Positions 21,465 through 61,718 of a stretch of 64,000 bases of DNA are shown in pieces (position 1 is the stretch's first letter; every line of letters starts with the position of its first letter). The stretch is from Acidimicrobiales bacterium. GTDB taxonomy: Bacteria; Actinomycetota; Acidimicrobiia; Acidimicrobiales; SZUA-35. The notes under the pieces were generated by a model. The model did no database searches. It saw nothing but the letters and a program-made list of their open reading frames with translations, and had not been told where the DNA came from. The stretch spans positions 65,306 through 129,305 of the forward strand of contig JAHDFH010000001.1 in assembly GCA_020628305.1 (NCBI GenBank). Direction: 5' to 3'. Position numbers and translations under genes: made by a program.

Positions 21465-21543
21465 GGTAGGGGCGGTCCTATCCGGCTTTTGCTGTCATCC
21501 CTCGGCATCAAGCCTCAGGGAATGACTTGGTGGTCAGGTGTGG
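21465..21543 (+). repeat. bipartite intergenic repeat (module A + module B), copy 1
   Basis: GGTAGGGGCGGTCCTATCCGGCTTTT followed by GTCATCCCTCGGCATCAAGCCTCAGGGAATGACTTGGTGGTCAGGTGTGG. The B half is nearly identical to 38681-38734 and the A half to 39513-39539. Confidence 0.8.
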
Positions 21544-22352
21544 CGTACCCATCCTTCAGGGGAACCCAAATTAGGCATGGCAGTTTCGCCCTGAGCGTCA
21601 GGGGAAGACCGATAGCAGCGCACTCGGTTTACCTTCTCCTTGACACCTGAAAGCCAGAGAGATTCTTTGACTACTAAGCGGCGTTCAGCAATTTCCTCCT
21701 TCAAGCGCCCAGCAGCACCGTGTTCGAGGTTCCAGTTCTCCGTAGCATCTCCGAGTACCACCTCAGCTAGCCGCGTTATTTGAGCGTAACGTTCCATACA
21801 GACGGTGGCGATTTCGCTGAACAATACGTGATCTGTGGTTGTAAAGGCGATGTAGCACAGAAGCTCAGCAACTAGATCATCTAGCCTCAATTTGCTGGTG
21901 GTATCCAGCTCAGGTCGAAGAGCAACTTCCAGCTCGACTTTCGGGAAGGCCTCAGCTAGATCGACCAAAATAGTCACCCACCAAGTTGAGCCTTCGCTCG
22001 AAAAGGCATAGTTCTGGACGAGTGAGTCAAGATCAAGACCTCTTTTGAGGCGAGGGGAGAAGAGCGTGAAGCCTAGGCCCGAGGCTTGGAGAGAGTTGAG
22101 TGTTAGTTGTCTTGATTTATCGTCAAGGTTCAGAAGCGATACATTGTGTTTCAGCATTGCCCTGGATGTTCTTTCCAACCGTTCGAAACCCAGGAGGGCT
22201 AGGACGAGGTCCTCATACGGAATTCTGCCATGTCTGAGTAGCTTGAGGAATTCATCACGGTCGTCGTTAAAGAGCCTAAGATGGTCCTCAATTCCCCTCC
22301 ATGCAGCAATGGTGATTATCGGTTCCGCCATTAGTCGAAGTCTAGACAGCAA
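21534..22352 (-). CDS. hypothetical protein (272 aa), antisense to the nuo operon
   Basis: Intact ORF with no recognisable motif. The last approximately 10 nt of the ORF, including its stop codon, lie within repeat copy 21465-21543. Confidence 0.55.
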   Translation of the reverse strand: MLSRLRLMAEPIITIAAWRGIEDHLRLFNDDRDEFLKLLRHGRIPYEDLVLALLGFERLERTSRAMLKHNVSLLNLDDKSRQLTLNSLQASGLGFTLFSPRLKRGLDLDSLVQNYAFSSEGSTWWVTILVDLAEAFPKVELEVALRPELDTTSKLRLDDLVAELLCYIAFTTTDHVLFSEIATVCMERYAQITRLAEVVLGDATENWNLEHGAAGRLKEEIAERRLVVKESLWLSGVKEKVNRVRCYRSSPDAQGETAMPNLGSPEGWVRHT

Positions 22353-22450
22353 ACATCGAAAAAGTACCTATATCAGTGGTCAGAAATGTTGGTCAGGGTA
22401 GAGTTGAGCTCTGTGATCCGCCAAGCTAGTTTGTCAGTCCTGGAGAATCG

Positions 22451-22990
22451 ATGAGCGATTCAATTCCAGAGGTTGAAGATGTCGAAATTGAGATCCATGG
22501 AAGCAATTCTGAGGTGCTATTTGGCTGCCCCGTAAGCTACTCGATGGGTCAGACTGTTATCCACCCAAGTAGGAGTCACTGGCTTCAGGTCGCTACTAAC
22601 TTGCTTAACGACGGCTATAACATGTGTGTCGATTTGACTGCCGTTGACTACTTATCCAATGACACTAGGGAACTGCCAGAAGGCATAGTTCTTGAACGGT
22701 TCGAGGTTGTAGCTTCGTTTGTATCCCATGAAAGAGCTGAGCGCCTTAGGGCTCGAGTGCAAATTTCTGGATCTGATCCGACTATCGATTCCCTCTACGA
22801 GATTTATCCAGGAACAGACTTTCTAGAACGAGAAGTTTATGACATGTTTGGCATCACTTTCGAAGGCCATCCTGATTTGTCCCGAATCTTGATGCCAGAA
22901 GAGTGGCAGGGGCATCCACTGCGCAAAGACTTTGATGTTGGGGCTATCCCAGTGCAGTTTAAGTATCCACAGGGTGAGAAATATGATTGA
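22451..22990 (+). CDS. nuoC: NADH-quinone oxidoreductase subunit C
   Basis: EREVYDMFGITFEGHPDLSRILMPEEWQGHPLRKDF. Confidence 0.9.
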   Translation: MSDSIPEVEDVEIEIHGSNSEVLFGCPVSYSMGQTVIHPSRSHWLQVATNLLNDGYNMCVDLTAVDYLSNDTRELPEGIVLERFEVVASFVSHERAERLRARVQISGSDPTIDSLYEIYPGTDFLEREVYDMFGITFEGHPDLSRILMPEEWQGHPLRKDFDVGAIPVQFKYPQGEKYD

Positions 22991-24272
22991 TTCACCTGAG
23001 AAGCAGGTAGTTACTTCCCAGCTTGGGAAGCTTCCGAAGCTAGATTCTGTTCTTCGTATGTCTGAGGTGCAGGCGGCTGAAGCTGGCTCTTCTGCTTATC
23101 AAAACGATGACGAGACCATGATTATCAACATGGGGCCATCACACCCCTCAACGCACGGTGTGCTTCGTTTAATGCTCGAGCTTAAGGGTGAAATGGTGCT
23201 TCGGTCCAAGCCAATTATGGGGTACCTCCATACTGGCATGGAAAAAACCGGCGAAGAGCTTACCTACTTGCAGGGTGCAACAAATGTCACCCGCATGGAC
23301 TACGCCTCGCCTCTCTTCAATGAGCTAGCGTTTTCTCTGGCCGTTGAAAAACTTGTCGGGATGGAAATCCCAGAGCGAGCTACCTGGATTCGCATGCTGA
23401 TGTGTGAGCTCAACCGCATCTCCTCTCATTTGTTGTTTATGGCAACGAATGGCATGGATTTGGGTGCTGTGTCAATGATGATCTACGGCTGGCGAGAACG
23501 AGAGCAAGTTCTTCGATTCTTCCAAAAAGTTACAGGCCTGAGAATGAATCACAACTACATCCGCCCAGGGGGAGTGGCAGCCGATTTGCCACCGGGTTGG
23601 GAAGAAGATGTCAACTCCTTGATGGAGATGCTTCCTCCAAGGCTCGAAGAGTATGACACGCTAATGACGAACCAGCCGATTTGGCGGGAACGCCTTCAAG
23701 GTGTTGGGTTCTTAAGCAAAGAAGAGGCACTGGCTTTGTCGATTACTGGGCCACTCTTACGCTCTGCTGGGGTTGCCTGGGATTTGCGCAGCACAATGCC
23801 TTATCTTGCATATGACCAAGTTGATTTCGATGTTTTGGTTGGTAGTTACGGAGATTGCTTTGACCGGTACTCCATTCGCCTCAACGAAATTCGTGAATCG
23901 ATGAAAATCGTAAAGCAGATCGTCGAGAAAATGCCGGAGGGTGACTACCGTGTTCAGGATAAAAAGATCACGCCGCCACCTCGAGCTCGGATTGATGAGT
24001 CGATGGAAGCTTTGATCCACCATTTTAAGATCTTTACAGAGGGCTACAAAGTTCCGGCAGGCGAAGTATATGTGGCAGTAGAGTCTCCACGAGGCGAGCT
24101 GGGCTGCTACATAGTTTCAGATGGCTCATCAAAGCCTTACCGCATGCATATTCGTGGCCCTAGCTTTGTCAACCTTCAAGTGCTTCCACATATGTTGGCC
24201 AACTCTCAGATTGCTGATGCAGTAGCCATTCTTTCAAGTGTTGATCCAATTCTTGGCGAGGTAGATAGATGA
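22983..24272 (+). CDS. nuoD: NADH-quinone oxidoreductase subunit D
   Basis: NMGPSHPSTHGVLRL and C-terminal SVDPILGEVDR. ATG 22983 overlaps the nuoC stop. The track ORF's earlier start lies inside nuoC. Confidence 0.95.
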   Translation: MIDSPEKQVVTSQLGKLPKLDSVLRMSEVQAAEAGSSAYQNDDETMIINMGPSHPSTHGVLRLMLELKGEMVLRSKPIMGYLHTGMEKTGEELTYLQGATNVTRMDYASPLFNELAFSLAVEKLVGMEIPERATWIRMLMCELNRISSHLLFMATNGMDLGAVSMMIYGWREREQVLRFFQKVTGLRMNHNYIRPGGVAADLPPGWEEDVNSLMEMLPPRLEEYDTLMTNQPIWRERLQGVGFLSKEEALALSITGPLLRSAGVAWDLRSTMPYLAYDQVDFDVLVGSYGDCFDRYSIRLNEIRESMKIVKQIVEKMPEGDYRVQDKKITPPPRARIDESMEALIHHFKIFTEGYKVPAGEVYVAVESPRGELGCYIVSDGSSKPYRMHIRGPSFVNLQVLPHMLANSQIADAVAILSSVDPILGEVDR

Positions 24273-24907
24273 GTCGTTTAACTTCTGCTGCCGTGATTGA
24301 AGCTGAGGAGATTATTGCCCGCTATCCGAGGAAGAAATCGGCCCTCATTCCTTTGCTGCATTTGGCTCAGGCTCAGGATGGTTACGTCGCTGACGACGCA
24401 ATGGAACACATTGCGGAGTTGCTGGATATCACACCAGTCGAAGTTCTTGGGACGTGCTCATTCTATGAAATGTTTAAGAGAGAGCCTGTTGGTAAGTATC
24501 TAGTAAACATCTGCACCAATATTTCGTGCCAGCTGATGGGTGGCGAAGAGCTCCTCCACCATGCAGAAAAGACGCTAGGGATCAAGTCTGGTGGAACAAC
24601 TGAAGACGGCATGTTTACCATTGAAGATGTTGAATGTATTGCAGCTTGTACCGAAGCTCCCTGTATGCAGGTGAACTATCGCTATGCCGGACGTTTGGAC
24701 GAGGTCCGTTTCGACAAGATAGTTTCTGAGATAAGAGAAGGCAAGCTTGCCATACCAGCCCACGGCAATCTTGGTGATGTGAAACAGCACATCCCACAAG
24801 AACGCGAGTCTGGCATCAAGCCTCCAGAACAAACTGAAGCTCCTGCCTGGTTTGTTCGCCGCATGTCAGAATCTGAGAGTGAGGTAACTATCAATGCCAA
24901 CAAATAA
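24269..24907 (+). CDS. nuoE: NADH-quinone oxidoreductase subunit E
   Basis: 2Fe-2S Cys pattern: GTCSFYEMF, CTNISCQLMG, CIAACTEAPCMQVN. Confidence 0.9.
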   Translation: MSRLTSAAVIEAEEIIARYPRKKSALIPLLHLAQAQDGYVADDAMEHIAELLDITPVEVLGTCSFYEMFKREPVGKYLVNICTNISCQLMGGEELLHHAEKTLGIKSGGTTEDGMFTIEDVECIAACTEAPCMQVNYRYAGRLDEVRFDKIVSEIREGKLAIPAHGNLGDVKQHIPQERESGIKPPEQTEAPAWFVRRMSESESEVTINANK

Positions 24908-26285
24908 CTACCTCCCTCACCTTGATGGCTATGTGGACAACGAAGGTCCAAAGATTGTCACCTCAAGATTTAACGATCCAAACAACTACAAGATTTCTAA
25001 CTACAAAGCCTCCGGCGGTTACCAAGCTCTTGAATCAGCACTCGACATATCACCGGATGCTGTAGCCGCTGAGATCAAAGATGCGATTCTCCTCGGTCGT
25101 GGGGGTGCGGGCTTTCCTGCTGGCCTTAAGTGGGGCTTCCTGCCCGATGTCTACCCGCGTTACCTCGTGGTCAATGGTGACGAATCTGAACCTGGAACCT
25201 ACAAAGATAGACTCTTGATGGAGCATGATCCTCACCAACTTATTGAGGGTTGCCTGATTACTTGCTATGCGCTGGGTATTGAGACTTGCTTTCTTTATGT
25301 GAGGGGCGAGATGGCTCTTGCTCAAGAAAGGCTTGCCCAAGCCCTAAACGATGCCTACGCTCAAGGCTATATTGGCAAAAACATCTATGGAACTGACGTT
25401 GGAATCGACATCGTTCTGCACTGGGGAGCTGGAGCTTACATAGTTGGCGAAGAAACAGCACTGATTGAATCACTCGAAGGCAATCGTGGGATGCCTCGCC
25501 TTAAGCCCCCTTTCTTTCCAGCGGTGAAGGGCGTCTACATGAAGCCAACCATTGTTAACAATGTTGAGACGCTTTCAAACGTGCCTTGGATTGTTACTAA
25601 CGGTGCTGATAAGTACAAGGAGTTTGGTTCGGAGGCGTCTCCTGGTTCGCGCATGTTGGCCATCTCAGGTCATGTGAATAGGCCTGGCGTGTACGAAGTG
25701 GAACAGGGCGAAGTGACATTTAGGGAGCTTTTCTACGGTGATAACTACTGTCAGGGCATCCGAAACGATGGAGATGTCAAGATGTTCATCCCCGGCGGAG
25801 GCTCAGCCCCATGGTTCTTTGAAGAACAACTCGATCTGCCTTTAGAAGCTAAAGCTGTTGGAGCGGCAGGTTCTATGCTTGGGTCGGGAGCCATTGTGGT
25901 GATGGATCAAACAACTGACGCGGTTAAGGCCTGTTTGCGAGTAGTTCGTTTCTTTGCAAGAGAATCGTGTGGTAAGTGCACTCCCTGTCGTGAAGGCACT
26001 TCTTGGGAAGAGAAGATTTTGCAGCGCATTCTAGATGGTGCTGGCCGCCCAGAAGATCTCGATTTGCTACTTGATGTTGGTTCACAAATTTCTCCAGGAG
26101 ATTACCCGAAAGCGGCTTGGGAAGCTGAAGGTCTTGAAGCGGTTCCGTTCCCACCCAAGCAAACCACCATCTGTCCGTTGGGGCCATCTTCTGTAGCTCC
26201 AATCACTTCAGCCTTACGCCGCTTCCGGCCAGAGTTTGAAGCTAAGATTGCCGCCGGACGCACAACAGTTGGGGCGAGTTCATGA
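24894..26285 (+). CDS. nuoF: NADH-quinone oxidoreductase subunit F
   Basis: GRGGAGFPAGLKW, NGDESEPGTYKDR (FMN/NADH site) and ESCGKCTPCREG (N3 cluster). Confidence 0.95.
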   Translation: MPTNNYLPHLDGYVDNEGPKIVTSRFNDPNNYKISNYKASGGYQALESALDISPDAVAAEIKDAILLGRGGAGFPAGLKWGFLPDVYPRYLVVNGDESEPGTYKDRLLMEHDPHQLIEGCLITCYALGIETCFLYVRGEMALAQERLAQALNDAYAQGYIGKNIYGTDVGIDIVLHWGAGAYIVGEETALIESLEGNRGMPRLKPPFFPAVKGVYMKPTIVNNVETLSNVPWIVTNGADKYKEFGSEASPGSRMLAISGHVNRPGVYEVEQGEVTFRELFYGDNYCQGIRNDGDVKMFIPGGGSAPWFFEEQLDLPLEAKAVGAAGSMLGSGAIVVMDQTTDAVKACLRVVRFFARESCGKCTPCREGTSWEEKILQRILDGAGRPEDLDLLLDVGSQISPGDYPKAAWEAEGLEAVPFPPKQTTICPLGPSSVAPITSALRRFRPEFEAKIAAGRTTVGASS

Positions 26286-28699
26286 CAGCAACTGAATCCA
26301 GCGCAGTAAAGGCTACGACAGGCGTTCCATTTACGCTTAACGGTCAAGAACTTCATGCTGAAGAGGGTGAACTGCTGATTGAAGCTTGCGACAAGAATGG
26401 CGTGCACATCCCAAGGTTCTGCTACCACAAGCGTATGGAATCGGTTGGCATGTGTCGCATGTGTATTGTCGAAGTCGACACTGGCAGGGGTCCAGCTTTA
26501 CAGCCAAGCTGCATGCTGACAGTTACCCCCGAGATGAAAGTCGAAACCGAGTCTGAAGCAACTAAAGACGCCCAAGATGGGGTGCTTGAATTACTCCTGG
26601 CGAATCATCCTCTTGATTGCCCTGTCTGCGATAAGGGTGGTGAGTGCCCGCTGCAAGATAACGCTTTTGCGTACGGGCCGGGTGAGTCTCGCTTTGTTGA
26701 AGAGAAAAGGCATTTTGAGAAGCCAATTCCAATTTCTGATCTGGTCAAACTAGATCGTGAGCGTTGCATACTTTGTGATCGCTGCACCCGCTTCGCCTCA
26801 GATGTCGCTGGTGACTCCCTTATCCACTTTATTGATCGCGGCTCATCCACTCAGGTAAATACGTTTCCAGATCATCCGTTTGCGTCTTACTACAGCGGCA
26901 ACACAGTTCAGATCTGTCCCGTTGGGGCATTAACAGCTGCTCCCTACAGGTTTAAAGCACGCCCTTGGGATTTAACAGGATCGCCGTCTACTGCAACGGT
27001 TGATTCCAGCGGTTCACGAGTTCTTGTGCAGTCTTCTCAAGACAAGGTGGTTCGTATCCAAGGCGTTGACTCAGATGCAGTGAACTGGGGTTGGCTCAGC
27101 GACAAAGAACGCTTTATTTATGAGGCAAATGTTTCTGAGGATCGTATTTTGCAGCCAATGCGACGAGCTGTAGATGGATCCTTAGAGCCAATGCGCTGGA
27201 ACGATGCGCTTAAGCAAACTTCTGAAGCGCTTGGTAAGAAAGCTGCTGCAATTGGTGGTGCTCGCTTAACGCTTGAAGCGCAACACGTTTGGCAAAAAGT
27301 TTTAGCCGATGAGTTCTCGGTTGTGTCTTATGATGCTTCATTGGGCGACGATGTTTCGGCAGACGTAGTTGATTCACTCCCTAAGGCAACTTATGACTGG
27401 GCTTTCAACGCCGGATCTGTAGTGGTCGTGGTTGGGCAAGATTTGAAAGAGATCTTGCCGAGCATCTATCTGAGGCTCCGAGGTGTGGTTAAGGACGGAT
27501 CAGTTGAACTCGTGGAGTTCAATTACAAGTCCGGCAGCCTGGCGAAATTGGCTCGTAAGTCTGTTCAAAGCAGACCAGGTGAGTTAGCCAAAGATGTTAA
27601 GCAAGCCTTTACCGCAACTCCAGGCGAGCGCTCCAGTGATTTGAATTGTCTGGTAGACACCGACAAGCCATTGACTGTAATTTTCAGCCGACCAAACGTT
27701 GCTGAATCAGCTGACTATTTAACTGAGGCTTTGCAAGTGATTCAGTCGGTAAGACCTGACGCTCATTTCTTGCCGGCGTTCAGACGAGGTAACACTGTAG
27801 GCGCTCAACTAGCCGGCTTGACCCCAGGAGTCAGAGAGGTCGCTACTGAAGATGAGATCATTGTCGAGCAAGTTGCAGTAGTTGGACGCCCAACCGCAGA
27901 GATCCTCCAAGAAGCTGCTAACGGCGAGGTAGAAACTTTATTGCTGCTTGGCGCTGACCCTATTTCTGACTTCCCTGACAAAGCGTTGGCAGAAGCCGCA
28001 CTCGATGCTGTGAATACAGTCATTGCCGTTGACTGTTTCGAAAATCCATCCGTTGCATCGGCGAACGTTATATTGCCTGTTGCCATGTATGGAGAAGTTA
28101 ACGGTCACTTTGTTAACTCAGAAGGTCGACTTTCCCCGCTTGGAGCTAGGGTCACAGCCCCTGGATTGGTTCGCTCAGATTTGGAGATAGCTGCTTCATT
28201 AGCCAAGACAGCGCCGCAGTCAAACTCTGACGCACAAAGCTCTTTAGAAACTAGCCACATGCTTGGCTCAGAGCCAATTGCGTGGGATTTACTTGAACTC
28301 TCGAGCGAAGGCGCTCGCATCAAGACGCCAACCAAGCCAATTCAGCGTGTCAAGGCCGACGTTCCAACTGTAGCTGATGGCCTGCGACTGGTGATTGGCA
28401 ATAAGCTCTGGGATCAGGGAACTATCGTCGAAAACTCTCGGACCCTCGCCGGTCTTTGTGAGACTTTCAAAGTACGAATCAATCCTGCTGATGCAGATCG
28501 GTTTGGTTTGACAGCCGGTGCTGAGATTGTAGTTAAGAACGCTAAGGCCACAGCCTCTGTTCCGTTTATCACAGATTCATCAGTTGCTGAAGGTGTTCTC
28601 TGGGCCCCAGCGAATGTTAGAGGGTTTGATCCACGCTCGTTTGTCACGTTCTCCGAAAGTGTTTGTTATGTCGAGGTAAGTGCTGGAGAGCAGAAATGA
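26282..28699 (+). CDS. nuoG: NADH-quinone oxidoreductase subunit G
   Basis: N-terminal 2Fe-2S/4Fe-4S Cys clusters: CYHKRMESVGMCRMC, HPLDCPVCDKGGECPLQ, CILCDRCTRF. Molybdopterin-like C-terminal domain. Confidence 0.9.
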   Translation: MTATESSAVKATTGVPFTLNGQELHAEEGELLIEACDKNGVHIPRFCYHKRMESVGMCRMCIVEVDTGRGPALQPSCMLTVTPEMKVETESEATKDAQDGVLELLLANHPLDCPVCDKGGECPLQDNAFAYGPGESRFVEEKRHFEKPIPISDLVKLDRERCILCDRCTRFASDVAGDSLIHFIDRGSSTQVNTFPDHPFASYYSGNTVQICPVGALTAAPYRFKARPWDLTGSPSTATVDSSGSRVLVQSSQDKVVRIQGVDSDAVNWGWLSDKERFIYEANVSEDRILQPMRRAVDGSLEPMRWNDALKQTSEALGKKAAAIGGARLTLEAQHVWQKVLADEFSVVSYDASLGDDVSADVVDSLPKATYDWAFNAGSVVVVVGQDLKEILPSIYLRLRGVVKDGSVELVEFNYKSGSLAKLARKSVQSRPGELAKDVKQAFTATPGERSSDLNCLVDTDKPLTVIFSRPNVAESADYLTEALQVIQSVRPDAHFLPAFRRGNTVGAQLAGLTPGVREVATEDEIIVEQVAVVGRPTAEILQEAANGEVETLLLLGADPISDFPDKALAEAALDAVNTVIAVDCFENPSVASANVILPVAMYGEVNGHFVNSEGRLSPLGARVTAPGLVRSDLEIAASLAKTAPQSNSDAQSSLETSHMLGSEPIAWDLLELSSEGARIKTPTKPIQRVKADVPTVADGLRLVIGNKLWDQGTIVENSRTLAGLCETFKVRINPADADRFGLTAGAEIVVKNAKATASVPFITDSSVAEGVLWAPANVRGFDPRSFVTFSESVCYVEVSAGEQK

Positions 28700-29985
28700 T
28701 TGGCGCTCAACCATACCTAGCAGATGGCGTCGACCTTGGTGACATCGTGCTAGCCGTAAGCAAGGCCACCATTGCGTTTGTAGTTCTTTTAGTATCAGTG
28801 ATGTTGATGGTCTGGTTTGAGCGTAAGGTTGTGAGTCGCTTACAAAACCGTATTGGACCTAATGTTGCTGGACCGTTCGGAATCTTTCAAACACTTGCTG
28901 ATGGTATAAAGCTGTTCTTTAAAGAAGATCTCATTCCGGAAAGATCAGACCCACTTATTTTTAAACTTGCACCGTACTTGTCGCTGGTTCCCGCGTTTTT
29001 AACTTTCACAATTGTTCCTATCGCTGGGGATTTCAACGCAGATAACAATGGATCAGTAACCATCTTTGGGCGTGAAACTTTTCTTCAAGTAGCTGACGCT
29101 CCGGTTGGTGTGTTGCTGTTTCTTGCAATGAGTTCAGTTGGAGTTTACGGAATTATGCTTGCTGGTTGGGCTTCAGGTTCTAAATATCCTCTCATAGGAT
29201 CCGTCAGAGCTACAGCACAAGCCATCAGTTACGAAGCTGCACTTGGTCTATCTTTAGTTTCGGTCATCATTTTGTCGGGCTCATTGAGTACTAACGCTAT
29301 TGTTGATGTCCAAGCCGGCGCAGGCGCGGGATTCTTACCAAATTGGCACCTGATCACATCTGCATTCGTGCCATTTATAGTTTTTGTTATTGCAGGAACT
29401 GCAGAACTGAATCGTCCACCGTTCGACTTAGTCGAAGCAGAGCAAGAACTCGTCGGAGGTTTCCACACAGAGTACTCATCCATCCGTTTTGCACTTTTCT
29501 TCTTAGCTGAGTTCATGAATACAGTCACCATGTCAGCGATTATTGTGACTCTATTCCTGGGCGGACCAGCTGGCCCTAACCTTGGACTGCTGCCAGGCTG
29601 GGCTTGGGGCTTTGTCTGGTTCTTTGCGAAGCTTCTTGTATTCTTGTTTATGTTCGTATGGTTCAGAGCAACGCTTCCTCGTCTGCGATACGACCAGCTA
29701 ATGAACCTGGGCTGGAAGGTGTTGATTCCCGTATCGCTTGGCTGGCTATTGCTGCTATCTGGCCTACGCTTAGCTTCAGAAAATTCTGCTGGAGTAACTG
29801 AACTTCGTTTTATAGACTCTGACTCATTCAACACGGTGGTGTTCGCTGGCTTAGCAGTCTCAATTTTCTTGGTTGCCACTTTGTTGCTTTCAACGGCATT
29901 GCGAGACTCTAAAAAGAACAGACTCAAAGAACATGGCCTTGTAATGGTCGATGGCTCAGAGCCAATCAACACGGGAGCTTCGTAA
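28696..29985 (+). CDS. nuoH: NADH-quinone oxidoreductase subunit H (with a C-terminal extension)
   Basis: RKVVSRLQNRIGPN, GWASGSKYPLIGSVRA, ELNRPPFDLVEAEQELVGGFHTEYS. ATG 28696 overlaps the nuoG stop. Confidence 0.95.
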   Translation: MIGAQPYLADGVDLGDIVLAVSKATIAFVVLLVSVMLMVWFERKVVSRLQNRIGPNVAGPFGIFQTLADGIKLFFKEDLIPERSDPLIFKLAPYLSLVPAFLTFTIVPIAGDFNADNNGSVTIFGRETFLQVADAPVGVLLFLAMSSVGVYGIMLAGWASGSKYPLIGSVRATAQAISYEAALGLSLVSVIILSGSLSTNAIVDVQAGAGAGFLPNWHLITSAFVPFIVFVIAGTAELNRPPFDLVEAEQELVGGFHTEYSSIRFALFFLAEFMNTVTMSAIIVTLFLGGPAGPNLGLLPGWAWGFVWFFAKLLVFLFMFVWFRATLPRLRYDQLMNLGWKVLIPVSLGWLLLLSGLRLASENSAGVTELRFIDSDSFNTVVFAGLAVSIFLVATLLLSTALRDSKKNRLKEHGLVMVDGSEPINTGAS

Positions 29986-30620
29986 TGGGTTACCTAGCTG
30001 GATTTCCAATCACTCTTAAGAAATGGTTTGAAGGTGTTACAACCAAAAACTATCGTGCTGGTAAAGGTGGCAAATCAGATGTGAAGGCTCCCAAGCCCGA
30101 TCGTCTACATGGTCGACATGTGTTGAACCGCTACGAAGATGGCTTAGAGAAATGTATTGGCTGCGAACTTTGTGCGGGTGTTTGCCCAGCAAAGTGTATA
30201 TATGTTCGAGGTGCCGACAACAATCCCACAGATCCAACATCTCCTGGTGAGCGTTTTGGATTTGTATACGAGATTAACTATTTGCGTTGTATTCACTGCG
30301 ACTTGTGCGTTGAAGCCTGCCCAACTGAGGCGATCACAGAATCAAAGCTGTTCGAATTTTCCTTCGAAGATCGCAAGAGTGCGATTTATACGAAGAACGA
30401 GCTTCTTGTAGACGAAGACGGCAAACCTCAGCAGCTCCCTTGGGAAGATTGGCGTGAAGGCGAAGACAAAGCAACATCTGGTTGGATGAGAGCAACCGCT
30501 CCATCGGGGGATTCCAATTATGTTGGCAAGGTTGCATGGTCGGGAGAGCTTGGCTACGGCGTGCGTCAACCTGAGTCAGTTGAGCTGACCATTAAGCCAA
30601 AGTCAGGAGACAGTAAATGA
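29985..30620 (+). CDS. nuoI: NADH-quinone oxidoreductase subunit I
   Basis: CIGCELCAGVCP and CIHCDLCVEACP. Confidence 0.9.
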   Translation: MGYLAGFPITLKKWFEGVTTKNYRAGKGGKSDVKAPKPDRLHGRHVLNRYEDGLEKCIGCELCAGVCPAKCIYVRGADNNPTDPTSPGERFGFVYEINYLRCIHCDLCVEACPTEAITESKLFEFSFEDRKSAIYTKNELLVDEDGKPQQLPWEDWREGEDKATSGWMRATAPSGDSNYVGKVAWSGELGYGVRQPESVELTIKPKSGDSK

Positions 30621-31180
30621 TTGATGTTGTTGTCTTCGGAGTTTCAGCCATCATCGTCTTGGGTGGAGCGCTTGGTGTGGTCTTATCTAAGAACCCAGTT
30701 CGAGCAGCGTTGAGCCTCGTAGCGTCGTTCCTCGCAGTGGCAGTACTGTTTGTTATTCAACAAGCTCACTTCTTAGCATTGGTTCAAGTAGTGGTATACG
30801 GCGGAGCAATTGTTGTTCTCTTCTTGTTTGTTATTATGCTCCTGGGCGTTGACAAAGTAGAAGATTTAGATCTTCCTGAACGGTCACAGGTTGTGGCGGG
30901 CATAGTTTCGGGTTTGGCCTTCTTTGGACTGATTTGTGCAGGTCTCTTTGTCTCAGGACCTGGGGGAGATGAAGGCAACGTAGCGCTTACTGGGCAGATT
31001 GGGCGCAACCCGATTGATTCAACAGATGATATCAACCAGTTGGCGGCCGATATCTTCACTCGCAATCTTGTGCCATTTATGGCTACAGCTTTGTTGCTTA
31101 CTATTGCAACTATCGGTGCGGTTGTAATGGTGAAAAATTCAGAAGCTGACTCTTCGTTACCAGAAGCTGAGGTCAACTAG
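30617..31180 (+). CDS. nuoJ: NADH-quinone oxidoreductase subunit J
   Basis: Position in the operon. TM pattern with VQVVVYGGAIVVLFLFVIML. Confidence 0.85.
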   Translation: MIDVVVFGVSAIIVLGGALGVVLSKNPVRAALSLVASFLAVAVLFVIQQAHFLALVQVVVYGGAIVVLFLFVIMLLGVDKVEDLDLPERSQVVAGIVSGLAFFGLICAGLFVSGPGGDEGNVALTGQIGRNPIDSTDDINQLAADIFTRNLVPFMATALLLTIATIGAVVMVKNSEADSSLPEAEVN

Positions 31181-31485
31181 TGGAACTGACCGAAACATGG
31201 TTTCTGCTGCTGAGCGCAGCGCTTTTCTCAATTGGACTGGCAGGCATCCTGATCCGCAAGAATCCTTTGATTATGTTCATGTGTGCAGAACTTATGCTTA
31301 ACGCAGTCAATATCGCATTCATAGCATTCTCGGAGCGGCTGCAAGATATAGCTGGGCAGTCTGCGATTCTTTTTATTCTGGTCGTTGCCGCCGCCGAAGT
31401 AGTAATCGGTCTGTCGCTAGTAGTTTTGTTGCAGCGACGCAACAGAGACCTGGTAGTCGATGATCTATCGGAGCTGAGGGGGTAA
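31180..31485 (+). CDS. nuoK: NADH-quinone oxidoreductase subunit K
   Basis: 101 aa with 3 TM helices. MCAELMLNAVN...AAAEVVIGLSLVV. Confidence 0.9.
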   Translation: MELTETWFLLLSAALFSIGLAGILIRKNPLIMFMCAELMLNAVNIAFIAFSERLQDIAGQSAILFILVVAAAEVVIGLSLVVLLQRRNRDLVVDDLSELRG

Positions 31486-31488
31486 GAG

Positions 31489-36613: not shown

Positions 36614-36644
36614 CGCGGCATTAGGGACGCGGTCACTTGCCGCG
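36614..36644 (+). terminator. hairpin after nuoN (related to the G-loop hairpin family); candidate terminator
   Basis: CGCGGCA-TTAGGGACGCGGTCACT-TGCCGCG followed by TTTGG. It lies between convergent genes. Confidence 0.4.
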
Positions 36645-49190: not shown

Positions 49191-49191
49191 G

Positions 49192-50228: not shown

Positions 50229-50232
50229 TCGG

Positions 50233-50532: not shown

Positions 50533-50535
50533 CCG

Positions 50536-52818: not shown

Positions 52819-52843
52819 AAATGTTAGATGTTAGGAACTTACC

Positions 52844-54379
52844 ATGACTGATTTCTTAAACGACTGGGGCATCACCCTCATGGTGTTCACACCGCTGGTT
52901 GCAGCTTTTGCAATGATGCTGCTTCCGGGTAAACCAGACATAATCCACAAACAGGTTGCACTGGGAGCGTCAACCCTTACCGCTGTCTGGGGTGCTCTGT
53001 TGTTGTTCAACTTTGACTACGATTCAGCGTCGGTAATGCAGTTTGGTGTTGATCGCTCATGGATCGATGTTGTGAATGCACGGTATGACGTTGGTATAGA
53101 TGGCATATCGCTTCCACTGATTGCTCTGACGCTGTTCGTGGTGCCGCTTGTCATCCTTTACTCTTGGAATCATATTCCTAAACCCGGTAACGCCAAAGCG
53201 TTCCTTATCCTTACCCTGATTCTCCACACTGGTATGTTGGGAACGTTCGTTGCAAGAGATCTAGTTCTGTTCTTCGTTTTTTTCGAAGTTGTGCTTCTGC
53301 CAATGTATTTCATGATCGGTGTTTGGGGAGGGGAGCAGCGCCTCTATGCAGCAATAAAGTTCTTCCTCTACACCTTGTTTGGCTCTGCTTTGATGCTCGT
53401 ATCATTCCTAGCGCTGTACTGGTTGACCGGTTCAGAAACGTTCAACATGGCGCAACTAGCAGAGCTTGTCTCTACTTCAGATATCGCACTTGGCACTCAA
53501 GTTCTGATCTTTGGTGGCATGTTTATGGGCTTTGGAATCAAGGTGCCAATGTTTCCATTCCATACATGGCTGCCCGATGCGCACACTCAAGCACCGACGC
53601 AGGGTTCTGTAATTCTCGCAGCGGTACTCTTGAAGCTGGGGACCTATGGCTTCATCAGAATAGCGTTACCCATCTTGCCTGATGCGGCAGTTGAGTGGGC
53701 CCCTTGGATTGGTCTTCTAGCCGTGATTGGCATCATCTATGGCGCTCTGGGCTGCCTGGCACAGACAGATATGAAGCGCTTGATTGCGTTCTCATCTGTA
53801 GCGCATATGGGCTATGTGATGCTTGGAATCTCAACTCTCACGAGCTTCGGTATTTCTGCTGCAATCTTTGGCATGGTGGCTCACGGGCTTATCACTGGGA
53901 TGTTGTTCTTTATCGCCGGTTCGGTTAAGGATCGTTACCACACCCTTGAGATTAGTCGCCTTGGAGGTCTGCTTGTGCAGGCGCCACGCATGGGTTGGAT
54001 ACTTGGGTTCACCACGATGGCATCTCTCGGACTCCCTGGCTTGGCTGGCTTCTGGGGCGAGTTCCCAGCGATCTTGGCTGCCTACAACCCGGGTGGAGGA
54101 CTATCACAGCCGTTGTTCAGGGTTTACATGGTTGTGGCTGCTATTGGTACCGTTCTGGCAGCTGCTTACTTGCTGTGGCTGCTGCAGCGAACGGCTTTTG
54201 GTAACCCGTCGGAGGAGTTTGCTGATAACCCAGAGATCACAGATGCATCTAAATTGGAATACATATCCTGGGTACCATTTTTGATCATGATCGTGGTGCT
54301 CGGATTCGTGCCAGGACTAATTTTTGATGTTGCTGATGCTCCTGTTTCGGAGATGGCCGAAGTTTGGGTCGTTAAATGA
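52844..54379 (+). CDS. nuoM: NADH-quinone oxidoreductase subunit M, second operon
   Basis: HTWLPDAHTQAPTQGSVILAAVLLKLGTYG. Confidence 0.9.
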   Translation: MTDFLNDWGITLMVFTPLVAAFAMMLLPGKPDIIHKQVALGASTLTAVWGALLLFNFDYDSASVMQFGVDRSWIDVVNARYDVGIDGISLPLIALTLFVVPLVILYSWNHIPKPGNAKAFLILTLILHTGMLGTFVARDLVLFFVFFEVVLLPMYFMIGVWGGEQRLYAAIKFFLYTLFGSALMLVSFLALYWLTGSETFNMAQLAELVSTSDIALGTQVLIFGGMFMGFGIKVPMFPFHTWLPDAHTQAPTQGSVILAAVLLKLGTYGFIRIALPILPDAAVEWAPWIGLLAVIGIIYGALGCLAQTDMKRLIAFSSVAHMGYVMLGISTLTSFGISAAIFGMVAHGLITGMLFFIAGSVKDRYHTLEISRLGGLLVQAPRMGWILGFTTMASLGLPGLAGFWGEFPAILAAYNPGGGLSQPLFRVYMVVAAIGTVLAAAYLLWLLQRTAFGNPSEEFADNPEITDASKLEYISWVPFLIMIVVLGFVPGLIFDVADAPVSEMAEVWVVK

Positions 54380-55902
54380 TCTCATTTGATCTGCTAGCCA
54401 ACACGGAGCTCGCATTTGAGCGGCCAGCAATTGATTGGCATGCAGCTGCGCCTGAGCTTGTGCTTCTCGCTTGGGGTGCTTTGGTAACGCTTGTTGATCT
54501 TGTCTGGCTAGAAAAAGCCCGCCGGTTCATCCCAACACTCACAGGCTTTGGCTTTCTAGCTGCACTTATACCGGTAGTGACTCTTTGGGCAGATTCGGAT
54601 GCTTTGCCAAGGCAGATGTTTGATGGGGCTTATGTGACTGACGAACTTGCCCTTGTGTTCAAGGGGCTGTTCTTGTTGAGCGCTTATGTCGTTGTACTAT
54701 TGGGCGCTAACTATCTCAACGATGGCAATTACTATGATTCTGAGTTTTATCAGCTGATTTCTGCATCCGTGCTGGGCATGTTGATCATGGCATCAGCGAG
54801 AGACCTGGTGCCTATTTTCATTGCGATTGAGCTTGTTTCAATCCCGGCTTATCTGATGGCGGCGTGGCGTAAGAGAGACCTTAAATCGAACGAGGCTGGG
54901 CTGAAATATATGCTGATGGGTGTTTTCGCGTCGGCGATCATGCTTTATGGAATGTCGCTGCTTTACGGCATGGCTGGTAGTACCCAGATTTCGGCTATTG
55001 GAGAAGCTTTAACAGGGCTTAGTGACCGTCCACTGGTTATTCTTGGTGTGCTGTTTACGCTTATTGGTTTCGGTTTCAAGGTTTCGGCTGTGCCATTTCA
55101 CACATGGGCCCCCGATACTTATGAAGGTGCCCCAACTCCGCTCACAGCGTTCCTAGCGGTCGCATCAAAAACGGCAGGGTTTGTGGCGTTGTTGACGGTT
55201 ATTCTGATTGGCTTCGAATCTAAGTCAGAGCTTGTTGAGCCGTTCATGTGGGTGCTTGCTGCTGCCACTATGACCATCGGTAATCTGATTGCTCTACGTC
55301 AAACCAATATCGTTCGCATGCTTGCGTATTCTGGCGTAGCGCAAGCTGGCTACATGCTGGCTCCGTTGGCTGTGTACTCAGCGAATCCTGAGCTGTCTCG
55401 TTCAGCTGTAGTCAACTACCTGCTCATTTACGCAGCAATGAATCTGGGCGCTTTCGCAGTTGTGATTATCGCTGCACGCAAAACTAAGTCGGGGGAGATA
55501 TCGTCTTTTGGTGGCATGTTTCAGTACGCTCCAGGGTTGACCGTCGCCATGACGATCTTCTTATTCTCGCTTGCTGGGCTTCCACCTGTCGGGGGCTGGT
55601 TAGCCAAATGGAGGGTCTTTGAATCGTTACTCTTCTTTGGTGAAGGATCCACGGCACCAAGCCTTGCAGGAGTCTTACTAGCAGTGCTTGTTGCACTCAA
55701 CTCTGTAGTGGCAGCTTACTATTATCTGAGCGTTGCGAAGCAAATGTGGTTCATGCCTGCCGTCAACGATGACAACTCAACCATCAAGATCCCGTCAGCG
55801 CTCACCATAGCTTTGGCTATTGCAGTTGTCATCACCGTCGTCTCTGGCGTCACCAACCTCATGCCAGAGCTTTCCACCGCTGACTTCGGCTTAGGCCAGT
55901 AA
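54376..55902 (+). CDS. nuoN: NADH-quinone oxidoreductase subunit N, second operon
   Basis: FHTWAPDTYEGAPTPLTAFL. Confidence 0.9.
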   Translation: MISFDLLANTELAFERPAIDWHAAAPELVLLAWGALVTLVDLVWLEKARRFIPTLTGFGFLAALIPVVTLWADSDALPRQMFDGAYVTDELALVFKGLFLLSAYVVVLLGANYLNDGNYYDSEFYQLISASVLGMLIMASARDLVPIFIAIELVSIPAYLMAAWRKRDLKSNEAGLKYMLMGVFASAIMLYGMSLLYGMAGSTQISAIGEALTGLSDRPLVILGVLFTLIGFGFKVSAVPFHTWAPDTYEGAPTPLTAFLAVASKTAGFVALLTVILIGFESKSELVEPFMWVLAAATMTIGNLIALRQTNIVRMLAYSGVAQAGYMLAPLAVYSANPELSRSAVVNYLLIYAAMNLGAFAVVIIAARKTKSGEISSFGGMFQYAPGLTVAMTIFLFSLAGLPPVGGWLAKWRVFESLLFFGEGSTAPSLAGVLLAVLVALNSVVAAYYYLSVAKQMWFMPAVNDDNSTIKIPSALTIALAIAVVITVVSGVTNLMPELSTADFGLGQ

Positions 55903-55912: not shown

Positions 55913-55936
55913 CCATTGGGGACAGGTCTCGGTCGT
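55913..55936 (+). repeat. direct repeat, copy 1, flanking orphan gene 55959-56609
   Basis: CCATTGGGGACAGGTCTCGGTCGT. Matches 56686-56710 except for one extra G. Confidence 0.8.
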
Positions 55937-55958
55937 CCAGCTAATTGGTGCCTTGATC

Positions 55959-56685: not shown

Positions 56686-56710
56686 CCATTGGGGGACAGG
56701 TCTCGGTCGT
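56686..56710 (+). repeat. direct repeat, copy 2, flanking orphan gene 55959-56609
   Basis: CCATTGGGGGACAGGTCTCGGTCGT. Confidence 0.8.
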
Positions 56711-56876
56711 TGCGTAAAGTTTCGCCGGAGGACGGCACCAATCCGCAATCGTTGGATGTAGTGTCATTCAGCGAGGCAGAGGCCTCTGCACACCACCATC
56801 ACAAAACGGCGTCTTGTGAGGCTTATTGTTGAGGGGGGCTGTAACGAATATGGGTTTGGGTCGTCAAAGGATGTTC

Positions 56877-56916
56877 GAGATCCTCTGCGATCGTCGCGGC
56901 ATTGAGGGTGACGGCG
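56877..56916 (+). repeat. module B repeat, degenerate copy
   Basis: GAGATCCTCTGCGATCGTCGCGGCATTGAGGGTGACGGCG. It shares the GAGATCCTC head and the GAGGGTGACGG tail. Confidence 0.45.
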
Positions 56917-56929
56917 CTGATATTTGGGT

Positions 56930-57754: not shown

Positions 57755-57790
57755 TGCATGCCTTTCGTAACGATTGACTCTGAGTCTATC

Positions 57791-57819
57791 GGGACATTGG
57801 GGACGGGGGTAGATGTCCC
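57791..57819 (+). repeat. G-rich-loop hairpin repeat
   Basis: GGGACAT-TGGGGACGGGGGTAG-ATGTCCC in the divergent dapD/lipoprotein intergenic region. Confidence 0.7.
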
Positions 57820-57881
57820 AACTAGCCCCGTCAAAGTTGGGTTGACATCAGTACGTCCCGCAGTACAACTACACTTATGGG

Positions 57882-58877
57882 GTGCGGAAACTTGTTCTAG
57901 CAATATGCGTTTCAACCATCGCCTTAGCGTGTGGTGAATCTGGCGAAGTGGCTCTTGAGACACAGTCTTCGTTAGTAACCACGCCGGATGCTGGTGAAGA
58001 AAATCTTTCTGAAAAACCTGGCAGTAGCTCTAGTGCGAACGATCAGACTACAATCTCGATCTCGACAACTCTTGATACCCAACAGTTGACTTCATCCTCG
58101 AGCACATCGTCATCGACCTCGGCAGTTGCACCCACCACAACAGCGACGACTGTAACAAGCAGCACAGCAGGCACAGCTAGCCCAGTCGCTGGCGGCTCTG
58201 GATCCGACTCATACTCAATCTCTAATATTCCCGGCGGCAAAGTATTGAGTGTTGACTATGCAACAGCCAATCTCGGAACTTCAACAAGTCGCTGTTCTGT
58301 GGCTTCTATTAACGCTAACTGGATGACTACAGCAACCAAAGACACGGCTAGCCCGAATCACTTGGGTATTGCTGTTGTGGACGGTGTAGTTATCCAAGGC
58401 ACCGACCCTGAGTACAGGGGAGTGTTTGGAGAACGAGTCACTTCTTTAAGCAGCAACGTAACTGACGACTGGTCCGGAAAGACGATGGTCAGTAGAACCC
58501 TGCGTAAAGGAAACTCGATTATTGAGAATCATTATGCGTGGTACACAACGGATACTTCAGGATTCAGCTGGGCAGTGTCTGGAGTGCCGCTTGTTGTAGA
58601 TGGAGAATATGATCCGAATCTGTCTACCTCAGCGCAAAGTAACTACACCTATGGTGCTGGGAATCACTCATTCATTGCGGTAAATCCGAACGGAACGCTT
58701 TCGTTTGGAGCGACGAACTCGCTGACAGCAAGGGCGCTGGCCGATCTCTTAGTTGCCCAAGGCAACGTTGATGTAATGATGTTAGACGGTGGCGGGTCGA
58801 CAGAGCTCAACATCGGCGGGCAACCTGTGGTAGCTGGTACTTCACGCAAACCAATCTGGTTTGGCATGGGCTGCTGA
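57882..58877 (+). CDS. secreted lipoprotein, phosphodiester glycosidase (NAGPA)-like domain
   Basis: Lipobox TIALACG. Ser/Thr-rich linker. C-terminal MMLDGGGSTEL motif. Confidence 0.5.
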   Translation: MRKLVLAICVSTIALACGESGEVALETQSSLVTTPDAGEENLSEKPGSSSSANDQTTISISTTLDTQQLTSSSSTSSSTSAVAPTTTATTVTSSTAGTASPVAGGSGSDSYSISNIPGGKVLSVDYATANLGTSTSRCSVASINANWMTTATKDTASPNHLGIAVVDGVVIQGTDPEYRGVFGERVTSLSSNVTDDWSGKTMVSRTLRKGNSIIENHYAWYTTDTSGFSWAVSGVPLVVDGEYDPNLSTSAQSNYTYGAGNHSFIAVNPNGTLSFGATNSLTARALADLLVAQGNVDVMMLDGGGSTELNIGGQPVVAGTSRKPIWFGMGC

Positions 58878-58880
58878 AGA

Positions 58881-58910
58881 TGGGACAATTTACCCCGTCC
58901 CCATTGTCCA
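58881..58910 (-). repeat. G-rich-loop hairpin repeat (inverse orientation)
   Basis: The reverse strand reads GGACAAT-GGGGACGGGGTAA-ATTGTCC. Confidence 0.7.
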
Positions 58911-58925
58911 GATAAGCTAGGCCAG

Positions 58926-60909: not shown

Positions 60910-61572
60910 CTATTTCAGTGTTTTTGTTGGCTGAGTGGGTGGAATCCTTACACTTTGTTGAGCCCTTTGAACCTTTATGCGATTCATCTGCCTTGCAGCT
61001 TCAGTTCTGAGTCGTGAGGGAGCACCGTTCATGCGATTGATTTTGCCTAAAGTGTGAATTCTGTCAGGCATGGATAAGCGGGCGTTGGCTGCTGCTTCGT
61101 CACGATCTTTGGCGTGTAGGAACTTGTCCATGTCATCAAACGTTGCCGAGTCCGCCCGCAGCTTGAGTGTTAGATATGCACGTCCAGCTAGAACGTTATC
61201 ATCTGTAGCAGCAGCGATAAACGCAACCACTAGATCAGGAGTCTTAATATTGTGGATTAAAGCTTTGATCCTTTCTTTGTTGGGTTTTCGTTTGCTGAAT
61301 TCCTTTAAACATACATCTAGCAGTGCAGTATCAAGTTCTTCCCCAACTACTCGCTCACATGCGAGAAGAAGGCCCGGTGCGTGCGGTGAGTCGCTGGCAC
61401 TCAGAAAACGAACCGTCTCAGAGTGCAGGGCCCAGGAGGGGTGCCACTTGTTCGCAAGCTCTTCCCATCTTGTTGGGTTCTCAGCAATCTCTCTATGGCT
61501 GAAGACGCGAAACTCTTGCTGCACAAGCTCTGCTATTACAGATCTAAATCCATGATCGATAATCTCCGCCAC
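60910..61572 (-). CDS. hypothetical protein (220 aa)
   Basis: Intact ORF immediately upstream of 60076-60861 on the same strand. No motif recognised. Confidence 0.5.
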   Translation of the reverse strand: MAEIIDHGFRSVIAELVQQEFRVFSHREIAENPTRWEELANKWHPSWALHSETVRFLSASDSPHAPGLLLACERVVGEELDTALLDVCLKEFSKRKPNKERIKALIHNIKTPDLVVAFIAAATDDNVLAGRAYLTLKLRADSATFDDMDKFLHAKDRDEAAANARLSMPDRIHTLGKINRMNGAPSRLRTEAARQMNRIKVQRAQQSVRIPPTQPTKTLK

Positions 61573-61621
61573 CTAAACATTGTACCGAAGTAGCATCTCG
61601 CATGGTAATCGCCTATGCGCT

Positions 61622-61688
61622 GTAGGGGATGTCTATCCGTGGCTTGTTAGAGATCCTCCTTCGGCGTTGAGCCTCGGAGGATGACCGC
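61622..61688 (+). repeat. bipartite intergenic repeat (A-like + module B), copy 3
   Basis: GTAGGGGATGTCTATCCGTGGCTTGT followed by TAGAGATCCTCCTTCGGCGTTGAGCCTCGGAGGATGACCGC. Confidence 0.8.
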
Positions 61689-61697
61689 TAAACAATC

Positions 61698-61718
61698 GAA
61701 TAGGACCGTCCCTACCGG
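61698..61718 (-). repeat. module A repeat, inverted copy
   Basis: GAATAGGACCGTCCCTACCGG is the reverse complement of CCGGTAGGGACGGTCCTATTC (compare 39513-39533). Confidence 0.7.

Follow-up and report, generated by a model that had tools for sequence, protein, structure and literature searches.

What are the short repeats that crowd the intergenic regions of a 64-kb stretch of DNA from an Acidimicrobiales bacterium (contig JAHDFH010000001.1; the whole stretch is hereafter called the window), and which enzyme do they go with? An earlier note had described them as two modules, A and B, proposed either elements resembling repetitive extragenic palindromes (REPs) or miniature inverted-repeat transposable elements (MITEs), or a family of small structured RNAs, and matched them to no name. 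A named class exists, and the REP-like reading is supported: reverse-complemented, module B reads as a CGTC-tagged REP in the sense of Di Nocera, De Gregorio and Rocco (BMC Genomics 2013, PMC3733652), and as an Ssn-related motif (SRM) in that of Chenal et al. (Nat Commun 2025, PMC11893778). Because B matches a known class, the claim to novelty largely falls. Module B is very probably the cognate hairpin repeat, of the SRM/CGTC-tagged REP kind, of an Ssn-family nuclease, with the 97-amino acid (aa) protein encoded at 44785-45078 on the minus strand (ssn below) as its partner enzyme. Observed directly here are the repeats and the hairpin they form, the signature of tag and tail, the homology of ssn to its Neisseria counterpart, and the placing of this gene between repeats; Ssn biochemistry in this host, and its consequences, we infer by homology.

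REPs have been split into GTAG-tagged and CGTC-tagged superfamilies. CGTC REPs combine the tag with a stem whose first two positions are A-T pairs, a loop of 4-5 nt and a short tail, and are mostly organized as head-to-head dimers; no dedicated transposase was found for them (PMC3733652). The Neisseria NTS (CGTCATTCCCGCGMAVGCGGGAATCYRG) is an oriented subset of the dRS3 repeats. It is bound as single-stranded DNA (ssDNA) by SsnA, a single-domain GIY-YIG nuclease of 94 aa, which cuts a few nt upstream of the tag; the reverse strand, double-stranded DNA (dsDNA) and RNA are left uncut, and RNA is not bound. The C right after the NTS palindrome is the top base for binding, and the three bases preceding the palindrome are the top ones for cleavage. 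According to a degenerate SRM pattern, at least one SRM is found nearby in 71% of the ssnA homolog loci, and SRMs are found on both sides in 42%. In N. meningitidis, the Ssn system reduces transformation by NTS-bearing DNA, and a domesticated, insertion sequence-like origin has been hypothesized for the repeat-ssn-repeat unit (PMC11893778).

Module B copies and their hairpin

Eight clear copies of module B and a decayed one have been identified in the window, where none is expected by chance, and the coordinates previously given for B and A proved accurate to within a few bases. Copies are listed below in the CGTC sense, B' denoting a variant with a different stem, and E values being those of a covariance model.

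21489-21533, minus strand: divergent B copy, tag AGTC, no C after the palindrome; between nuoB and a reverse open reading frame (ORF) inside the 14-gene nuo operon (nuo-14); E 0.002
38676-38725, minus strand: B copy between convergent genes, belonging to a subfamily whose stem is ATTCCCC and whose tail is GGTGGTCAGGTGTG; E 1.1e-14
44609-44657, minus strand: B copy (SRM), head-to-head with B' 44742; E 1.6e-17
44742-44793, plus strand: variant B' copy (SRM), directly downstream of the ssn stop codon and antisense to ssn; E 1e-14
45138-45188, minus strand: B copy (SRM), on the same strand as ssn and about 60 nt upstream of its ATG; E 2.3e-17
45247-45298, plus strand: variant B' copy (SRM), 97% identical to 44742-44793, head-to-head with 45138 and tail-to-tail with 45310; E 4.2e-15
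45310-45361, minus strand: B copy with a small duplication in the stem; E 2.9e-13
56870-56919, minus strand: decayed B copy, CCGTCA...GAGGATCTCG kept; E 1.3
61642-61692, minus strand: B copy, tag GGTC, bracketed by two A copies, one diverged and one inverted; E 7.4e-17

The 30-nt core of module B was found at three sites with at most three mismatches, and at none in 100 shuffles. A repeat search grouped six B copies on the plus strand, the one on which the earlier note had read them, and detected two inverted variants (44735-44793 and 45240-45298), 97% identical to each other; a profile of B searched with nhmmer retrieved eight copies, all at E<=2e-8. The covariance model, run with filters off on the 64 kb, recovered its seven training copies at E<=3e-13 and scored copy 21489-21533, which lies outside the training set, at E 0.002; the copy that had been called degenerate (56870-56919) reached E 1.3 only, and no further credible copy was found in the window. 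A match of the B' stem at 42020-42047 was judged fortuitous, as it lies within coding sequence and has neither tag nor tail. The window B copies are all extragenic. Their orientation does not track that of neighbouring genes, and they occur in divergent and antisense contexts as well.

Beyond the window, a degenerate B pattern matched 13 singletons among 185,579 species genomes, in line with a rough estimate of about 9 chance matches, and tag and tail were absent in all three of those inspected. The same pattern gave one match in metagenomes, attributable to chance, and viral contigs gave no match for B or A.

Read on the opposite strand, module B becomes CGTC-AT[interrupted hairpin]AT-C-TCTAG, and all nine window copies fit xxCGTC-AT...AT-C-TCTAG in this sense, the tag being CGTC in seven, GGTC in one and AGTC in one, and the C directly following the stem being present in eight (it is missing in 21489-21533). 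The stem comprises 7 bp, an internal loop, 3 bp and a 5-nt loop, for a palindromic part of about 30 nt; in B' it comprises 4 bp, a loop and 6 bp. The 45138 copy, for instance, reads CCCGTC-ATCCTCC GA GGC TCGAA GCC GAA GGAGGAT-CCCTAA, and the B' copy at 44742 reads TGCGTC-ATTC TAA GGCGCC TCGAT GGCGCC GAG GAAT-CTCTAT. MAFFT followed by RNAalifold gave the inner 3-bp helix only, because the stems of the two subtypes are out of register, and a hand-specified structure was used instead. With this structure 91% of the cells pair in register, versus 33-59% when the partners are slid, and compensatory changes are found at two positions. In ssDNA folds of a canonical copy, of B' and of the 21489 copy, the 6-nt tag and the tail are unpaired; the gonococcal NTS and a short copy from a related organism adopt the same fold shape, again with tag and tail unpaired. 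Copy 38676 has the same shape, more weakly (z about -1). Copy 45310 folds poorly and is probably decaying, and copy 56870 has lost the hairpin fold, both of which fit decay.

The statement that canonical B copies all lie on the plus strand holds within the window, where seven of the nine share one orientation; this ratio, coming from nine copies, is not significant by itself, and a sister-strain contig hosts one copy in each orientation. GC skew of the plus strand is positive along the whole window, by which the plus strand is inferred to be the lagging-strand template. Since the CGTC strand is the minus strand in seven of the nine copies, most of them would keep the cleavable strand off the exposed template.

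A nuclease gene bracketed by the repeats

The densest repeat cluster (44609-45361) houses a gene that had been overlooked, with B copies on both sides.

44785-45078, minus strand: ssn-like gene encoding a 97-aa single-domain GIY-YIG nuclease; ATG at 45078, the mechanically called ORF extending to a GTG at 45114
44658-44741, minus strand: GT-rich spacer (CA-rich on the CGTC strand) with two truncated 'tag + 5' arm' half-sites, CCCGCCATCCTCAC and CCCGTCACCCTCC

The Pfam GIY-YIG domain (E 2.3e-17) spans residues 17-90 of the mechanically called 109-aa ORF, and no second domain was found in the Pfam scan, in agreement with the single-domain organization (about 90-150 aa, lacking an additional DNA-binding domain) that defines the Ssn family (CDD cd10448). 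Aligned by BLASTP to the 94-aa SsnA ortholog of N. gonorrhoeae, the protein shows 48% identity over 88 of 97 residues, ungapped, at E 5e-31. This lies within the limits set in the Ssn paper (E<1e-10, at least 75% coverage), the comparison sequence being the gonococcal ortholog and not N. meningitidis CAX49033.1. The gonococcal ORF has Y6, Y17 and E64 as in published SsnA; Y8, Y19 and E66 of the window protein align with SsnA Y6, Y17 and E64, and are invariant in an alignment of seven proteins. In a tblastn search of a plasmid collection, the best match was a chromosome-sized record of N. gonorrhoeae (47.7% identity, E 8e-21). Other matches came from Rhizobium, Sinorhizobium, Sphingobium, Azospirillum lipoferum and Novosphingobium aromaticivorans, genera overlapping the hosts of CGTC REPs named by Di Nocera et al. 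(PMC3733652). A search of solved structures returned a weak match (E 6e-7) to the UPF0213 protein 1ZG2, and no specific family name.

Followed in the direction of ssn, the cluster consists of a sense B (45310), an antisense B' (45247), a sense B (45138), ssn, an antisense B' (44742), which abuts the ssn stop codon, and a sense B (44609). Copies 45138-45188 and 44742-44793 thus flank the gene as SRMs are described to do, that is as inverted repeats of 20-50 nt found both 5' and 3' of ssn within 500 bp; three further B/B' copies lie within 300 nt of it. The TAG of the conserved TAGAGAT repeat tail serves as stop codon for two genes, ssn (44785-44787, minus strand) and a GNAT acetyltransferase gene (44079-44615; stop at 44613-44615, plus strand), in the latter case being supplied by the tail of B copy 44609-44657.

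The two half-sites in 44658-44741 are spaced by about 37 nt and precede a full copy; the interval 44708-44731 scored E 2.7 with the covariance model. Tandem arrays of truncated 'tag + 5' arm' units located directly upstream of a complete hairpin, in the CGTC sense, are found in three unrelated lineages: at 44658-44741 in the window, at 13960-14190 and 2520-2650 in contig L019 of a related organism, and at 4618-4925 in locus L047 of an unrelated metagenome. The units recur every 21 nt in L019 and about every 37 nt in the window, and L047 has two periods, 28 and 81 nt. Such arrays are not described in the passages of the Ssn paper cited here (PMC11893778); they are possibly the footprint of cleavage followed by slipped repair.

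Three independent loci (L047, L056 and L058), encoding homologs 50-54% identical to the window protein, feature the same repeat-gene-repeat layout, with CGTCAT...ATCT hairpins. The L047 homolog is 53% identical to the window protein (50% in the seven-protein alignment); tandem CCACCGTCATTGCGAGGAGCAAAGCGACGAAGCAATCT units lie just upstream of its gene, and GGATTGC...GCAATGAC hairpins on both sides, which, when reverse-complemented, have AGAT-hairpin-ATGACGG ends matching module B. L056 and L058 carry CGTCATTGCGAG...GAAGCAATCT(CT) upstream and AGAGATTGC...GCAATGA(C/T)GG downstream of the gene. Around the gonococcal ssnA ortholog seven NTS copies were found in a 1.66-kb locus. A covariance model built from window copies only scored a gonococcal NTS at E 0.01, with six more below 0.7, and the short CGTC copies of relatives at E 0.007. 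In the three Bacteroidota-like loci (L047, L056, L058), CGTCATTGCGAG...GCAATCT hairpins clearly flank Ssn homologs, yet evade the published SRM pattern. As implemented here, the pattern is valid, as it retrieves the seven NTS of the gonococcal locus; it gives no match in L047, L056 and L058, nor in the contigs of the sister strain (L014) and of relatives (L019, L021).

The repeats differ between strains. Up to the nuoB stop codon L014, a 1.5-kb contig from the metagenome-assembled genome (MAG) of a sister strain, matches the window at 99.6% identity; from the first base beyond it the two sequences are entirely different. Past the stop it hosts two A-like copies in tandem, a B-type copy in the opposite orientation and a tail-to-tail B copy; the window, in contrast to L014 1205-1513, has A and B followed by the reverse ORF. 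The nuo-14 operon is broken in the window (21461-22450), where nuoB (20885-21460) and nuoC (22451-22990) are separated by A, B and this opposite-strand ORF of 272 aa. The latter has no Pfam or NCBIfam match, and NCBIfam searches of the unknown ORFs lying beside repeats gave nothing.

No copies of B, A or C are present in the relatives with about 72% identity to the window in DNA and 88-90% in NuoD, C being a third family described below. Syntenic spacers in the relative L018 measure 80 nt versus about 770 in the window (GNAT gene to nuoA), 2 versus 36 nt, and 8 versus 188 nt. The relatives L019 and L021 host classical short CGTC hairpins, such as CGTCATTCCCAACTCGATTGGGAATCTAG, which in L019 have continuous 8-bp stems. 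Repeats of this sort therefore occur in related genomes, and the version found in the window appears lineage-specific. In L019 (13960-14240) and L021 (13920-14200), two independent assemblies of a related organism, three CGTC hairpins and half-site arrays are located in frame inside nuoL. The nuoL ORF is 868 aa long in these contigs versus 760 aa in the window, the insert of about 100 residues falling in a hydrophilic loop after the first transmembrane segment.

Module A, family C and the surrounding genes

Three to four copies of module A are found in the window; exact matches occur at 21465 and 39514, with none expected.

21465-21490, plus strand: module A copy (GGTAGGGGCGGTCCTATCCGGCTTTT), on the tail side of B 21489
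39514-39539, plus strand: module A copy, alone in a divergent intergenic region
61622-61647, plus strand: diverged module A copy
61697-61724, minus strand: inverted module A copy, 89% complementary to 39506-39533

The segment at 38655, formerly called A-like, resembles A loosely. The rule that A immediately precedes B at three loci is consequently firm at 21465, less so at 61622, where A is diverged, and loose at 38655. At two or three loci A lies beside the tail of B; at 39514 it is solitary, and in L014 it is in tandem. It contains a near-palindrome, TAGGGAC/GGTCCTA, with a fold of about -4.5 kcal/mol (z about -1.4). The description of the repeats as structured, borne out by the hairpin of B, is a poor one for A, given this weak fold. 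A was also considered as a GTAG- or CGTC-tagged REP and rejected, since the stem following either tag has 4 bp and a 1-nt loop. Module A is here treated as an accessory component of the mosaic, separate from B and with no known partner. Clustered CGTC elements of Neisseria are interleaved with other repeat families, and some REP dimers hold small stem-loops in their spacers (PMC3733652); by analogy, A may be of the same kind.

A third hairpin family, C, has the structure YGGGACA-TTGGGGACGGGGTnAnT-TGTCCCR.

33078-33108, plus strand: full family C copy
36614-36644, plus strand: full family C copy
38093-38123, plus strand: full family C copy
57790-57820, plus strand: full family C copy
58878-58914, minus strand: full family C copy
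55914-55943: partial family C match
56688-56717: partial family C match

Copies differ by compensatory changes in the stem (GCGGCA/TGCCGC at 36614) and share a conserved loop. An inverted pair of copies brackets the gene at 57882-58877, and the L018 spacer matching 36614-36649 is the one of 2 nt. No Rfam match was found for family C and no copies in the relatives examined; the 25 matches of its pattern in viral contigs all come from one unrelated phage gene. The 33078 copy, 87% identical to that at 57790, lies in frame inside a NuoL-like ORF (31489-33426) of the nuo-14 operon, and encodes ...YGTLGTGSFVP... in the C-terminal part of this antiporter-like subunit.

A GACGG (CCGTC) core is common to A (GGGRCGGTCC), B (GATGACGGG) and C (GGGGACGGGG). 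It corresponds in B to the tag 5' of the stem, in C to the loop of a covarying hairpin, and in A it falls within the near-palindrome. The likeness was noticed post hoc and may be a coincidence.

Two nuo operons, of 14 and 11 genes, share the window with genes of the cytochrome bc type and with housekeeping genes, and the best named homologs of its NuoD are found in Acidimicrobiia or Acidimicrobiales MAGs (about 80% identity). Intergenic spacers are mostly shorter than 100 nt, and the longer ones mostly contain repeats. The 64 kb thus hold two complex I operons. The 14-gene one (20405-36613) includes nuoE, nuoF and nuoG, and the 11-gene one (45386-55902) is without these three genes; in short stretches, the DNA encoding their antiporter-like subunits is 71-79% identical. 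A ZMP/ZTP riboswitch was found at 63187-63265 on the minus strand, upstream of a serine hydroxymethyltransferase gene (53 bits, gathering score 39). There it overlaps with the 5' end of a mechanically called 506-aa ORF (61720-63240); the real start of this ORF probably lies further downstream.

Readings of the repeats and comparison with known systems

If B and ssn work as NTS and SsnA do, the functional strand would be the opposite of the one adopted in the earlier note, with an unpaired (C)CGTC tag, a stem starting from A-T and T-A pairs, a C after the stem and a TCTAG tail. Whenever the CGTC strand becomes single-stranded, as in replication, in repair, or in incoming transforming or conjugative DNA, the hairpin would fold, and the Ssn homolog would bind the folded hairpin and nick a few nt 5' of the tag. 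By homology to SsnA, neither the complementary strand nor dsDNA nor RNA is predicted to be a substrate. Likely consequences are that ssDNA recombination substrates would be trimmed beside the repeats, and that the repeats would turn over rapidly where strain-variable segments begin and end.

Several observations weigh against pairing B with an Ssn enzyme. The palindromic part of B is about 30 nt long and has an internal loop, versus 20 nt in NTS (PMC11893778). Its stem is interrupted (7+3 bp, 4+6 bp in B'), whereas the families CGTC-1 to CGTC-4 have continuous stems of 8-9 bp (PMC3733652). The published SRM pattern, HGTCWYN(0-2)YYVSBRHN(0-5)WNVSBRGN(0-2)RNCYNB (PMC11893778), gives no match in the window. 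Scans of whole collections turned up no other genome with B, the NCBIfam search found no specific model for the window nuclease, and module A and family C are left unexplained by the Ssn model. Because the SRM pattern misses it, its palindrome is of about 30 nt and its stem is interrupted, B is classed here as a new SRM/CGTC-REP whose hairpin is a variant, rather than as a copy of one of the listed families. Being too short and too closely modelled on NTS, the pattern does not fit an interrupted hairpin of 30 nt, and since it misses both the window and the Bacteroidota-like loci, published counts of SRM-bearing genomes may be underestimates.

Might B, alone or with A, be instead a transcribed structured RNA, acting as small RNA, 3'-untranslated region (UTR) stabiliser or non-canonical terminator? 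The hairpin is conserved with compensatory changes, several copies lie just past stop codons (21465/21489, 38676, 44609, 44742), CTTTT follows A, and REPs of other bacteria can act in 3' UTRs, according to abstracts on the subject. Yet the ZTP riboswitch is the sole Rfam hit in the window at gathering score, nothing credible emerges around the main cluster at E<=10, and the comparison of B and A with Rfam, which the earlier note had proposed, yielded no match at either gathering or permissive thresholds. Terminator scans did not rise above chance level, and neither B nor A was flagged; B has no T-run, which agrees with the view already expressed that the repeats are not simply terminators. Copies are found in divergent and antisense contexts, independently of gene orientation, and are not conserved at syntenic sites in relatives. 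The unpaired tag and tail are the features that SsnA recognises on ssDNA, and the homologous system acts on ssDNA, SsnA not binding RNA (PMC11893778). The suggestion of a small structured RNA family is thus not supported, and this reading is very unlikely; the repeats may still have side effects at the RNA level.

Mobilisation as classical REP/REPIN by a RAYT (a Y1/HUH tyrosine transposase) encoded elsewhere would account for a short imperfect palindrome with an unpaired conserved end, extragenic and strain-variable, and for the inverted pairs of two sequence subtypes, reminiscent of BIMEs and REPINs. It is nonetheless highly improbable, for the tag is CGTC and no conserved GTAG is present at either end of B, CGTC REPs had no dedicated transposase in the survey of Di Nocera et al. 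(PMC3733652), no Y1 or other transposase domain is encoded by window ORFs of at least 90 aa, and the gene bracketed by the repeats encodes a GIY-YIG nuclease homologous to SsnA. Units of the A-B-A type might also be viewed as MITEs, cut and pasted by a DDE transposase, as at 61622-61724 a diverged and an inverted A bracket B in the manner of terminal inverted repeats. This arrangement was seen once only: elsewhere A is missing beside B or present on a single side of it, and A stands alone at 39514. Moreover, the CGTC tag and the CTCTAG tail, which form the two ends of B, are not inverted copies of one another, neither terminal inverted repeats nor target-site duplications are visible, and no transposase is found in the window, so that the MITE alternative raised in the earlier note is hardly credible at all. 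Likenesses to kink-turns, hammerheads, group II domain V and integron attC sites were considered and dropped, as the motifs are not conserved among copies and have no Rfam match.

With B and its Ssn homolog, the Ssn/SRM system, itself described only recently, now reaches an actinobacterial lineage of the Acidimicrobiia type that has compact genomes and is poorly sampled, and gains a hairpin variant that is longer, interrupted, comes in two stem subtypes and is invisible to the published search pattern. For annotation, the repeats explain inflated intergenic regions and mark sites of strain difference, including the nuoB-nuoC insertion in the complex I operon. Each new Ssn/hairpin pair is a candidate sequence-specific ssDNA nuclease of new specificity. 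In a more speculative and rather unlikely scenario, the tag would be recognised by the Ssn nuclease in more than one structural setting, and slipped repair after cutting by this enzyme would generate and spread the repeats. If so, A and C would be new classes of Ssn substrates, and CGTC-type REPs would be supplied with a mechanism of multiplication.

Among known systems, the GTAG-tagged REPs, BIMEs and REPINs associated with RAYTs in Proteobacteria resemble the window system in having a short ssDNA hairpin that bears a conserved unpaired tag, doublets in inverted orientation, and a partner gene with its own repeats on either side. They differ in the tag (GTAG versus CGTC) and in the fold of the enzyme, HUH/Y1 transposase versus GIY-YIG nuclease. 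To our knowledge, no strand-transfer activity is known for Ssn.

Similarity to the families CGTC-1 to CGTC-4 concerns the CGTC tag, the first stem pairs (A-T/T-A), the 5-nt loop and the unpaired tail. As in these, head-to-head dimers with spacers of 20-100 bp and heterodimers are found in the window, and intragenic copies in the genome of a relative (L019/L021). The tail is CTCTAG in the window, CCA in the published families. The survey of Di Nocera et al. covered Proteobacteria, Chlorobi, Bacteroidetes, Spirochaetes and Thermotogae; the phylum of the window host is outside these five, and the partner enzyme was not known to that work (PMC3733652). Rickettsia RPE-4 and RPE-6, classed as CGTC-4 and CGTC-1, respectively (PMC3733652), are CGTC-type hairpins able to reside in frame within protein-coding genes, and so parallel the cluster found in nuoL of L019/L021. 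In the window, unlike in RPE-4 and RPE-6, B copies are all extragenic, and the one intragenic hairpin (33078) belongs to another repeat family.

With respect to the NTS/SsnA pair, the window system differs in the host, an actinobacterium of marine and Acidimicrobiia type whereas the homologs of the Ssn paper are mostly Gram-negative, and in the two stem subtypes, B and B', which pair as heterodimers. It shares with Neisseria a single-domain nuclease of about 95 aa, 48% identical and with the same catalytic residues, encoded by a gene bracketed by its own hairpins. Like NTS, module B has an unpaired CGTC tag, a stem starting with AT, a C right after the stem and a CTAG-like tail, and is dispersed in intergenic clusters beside variable genes (PMC11893778).

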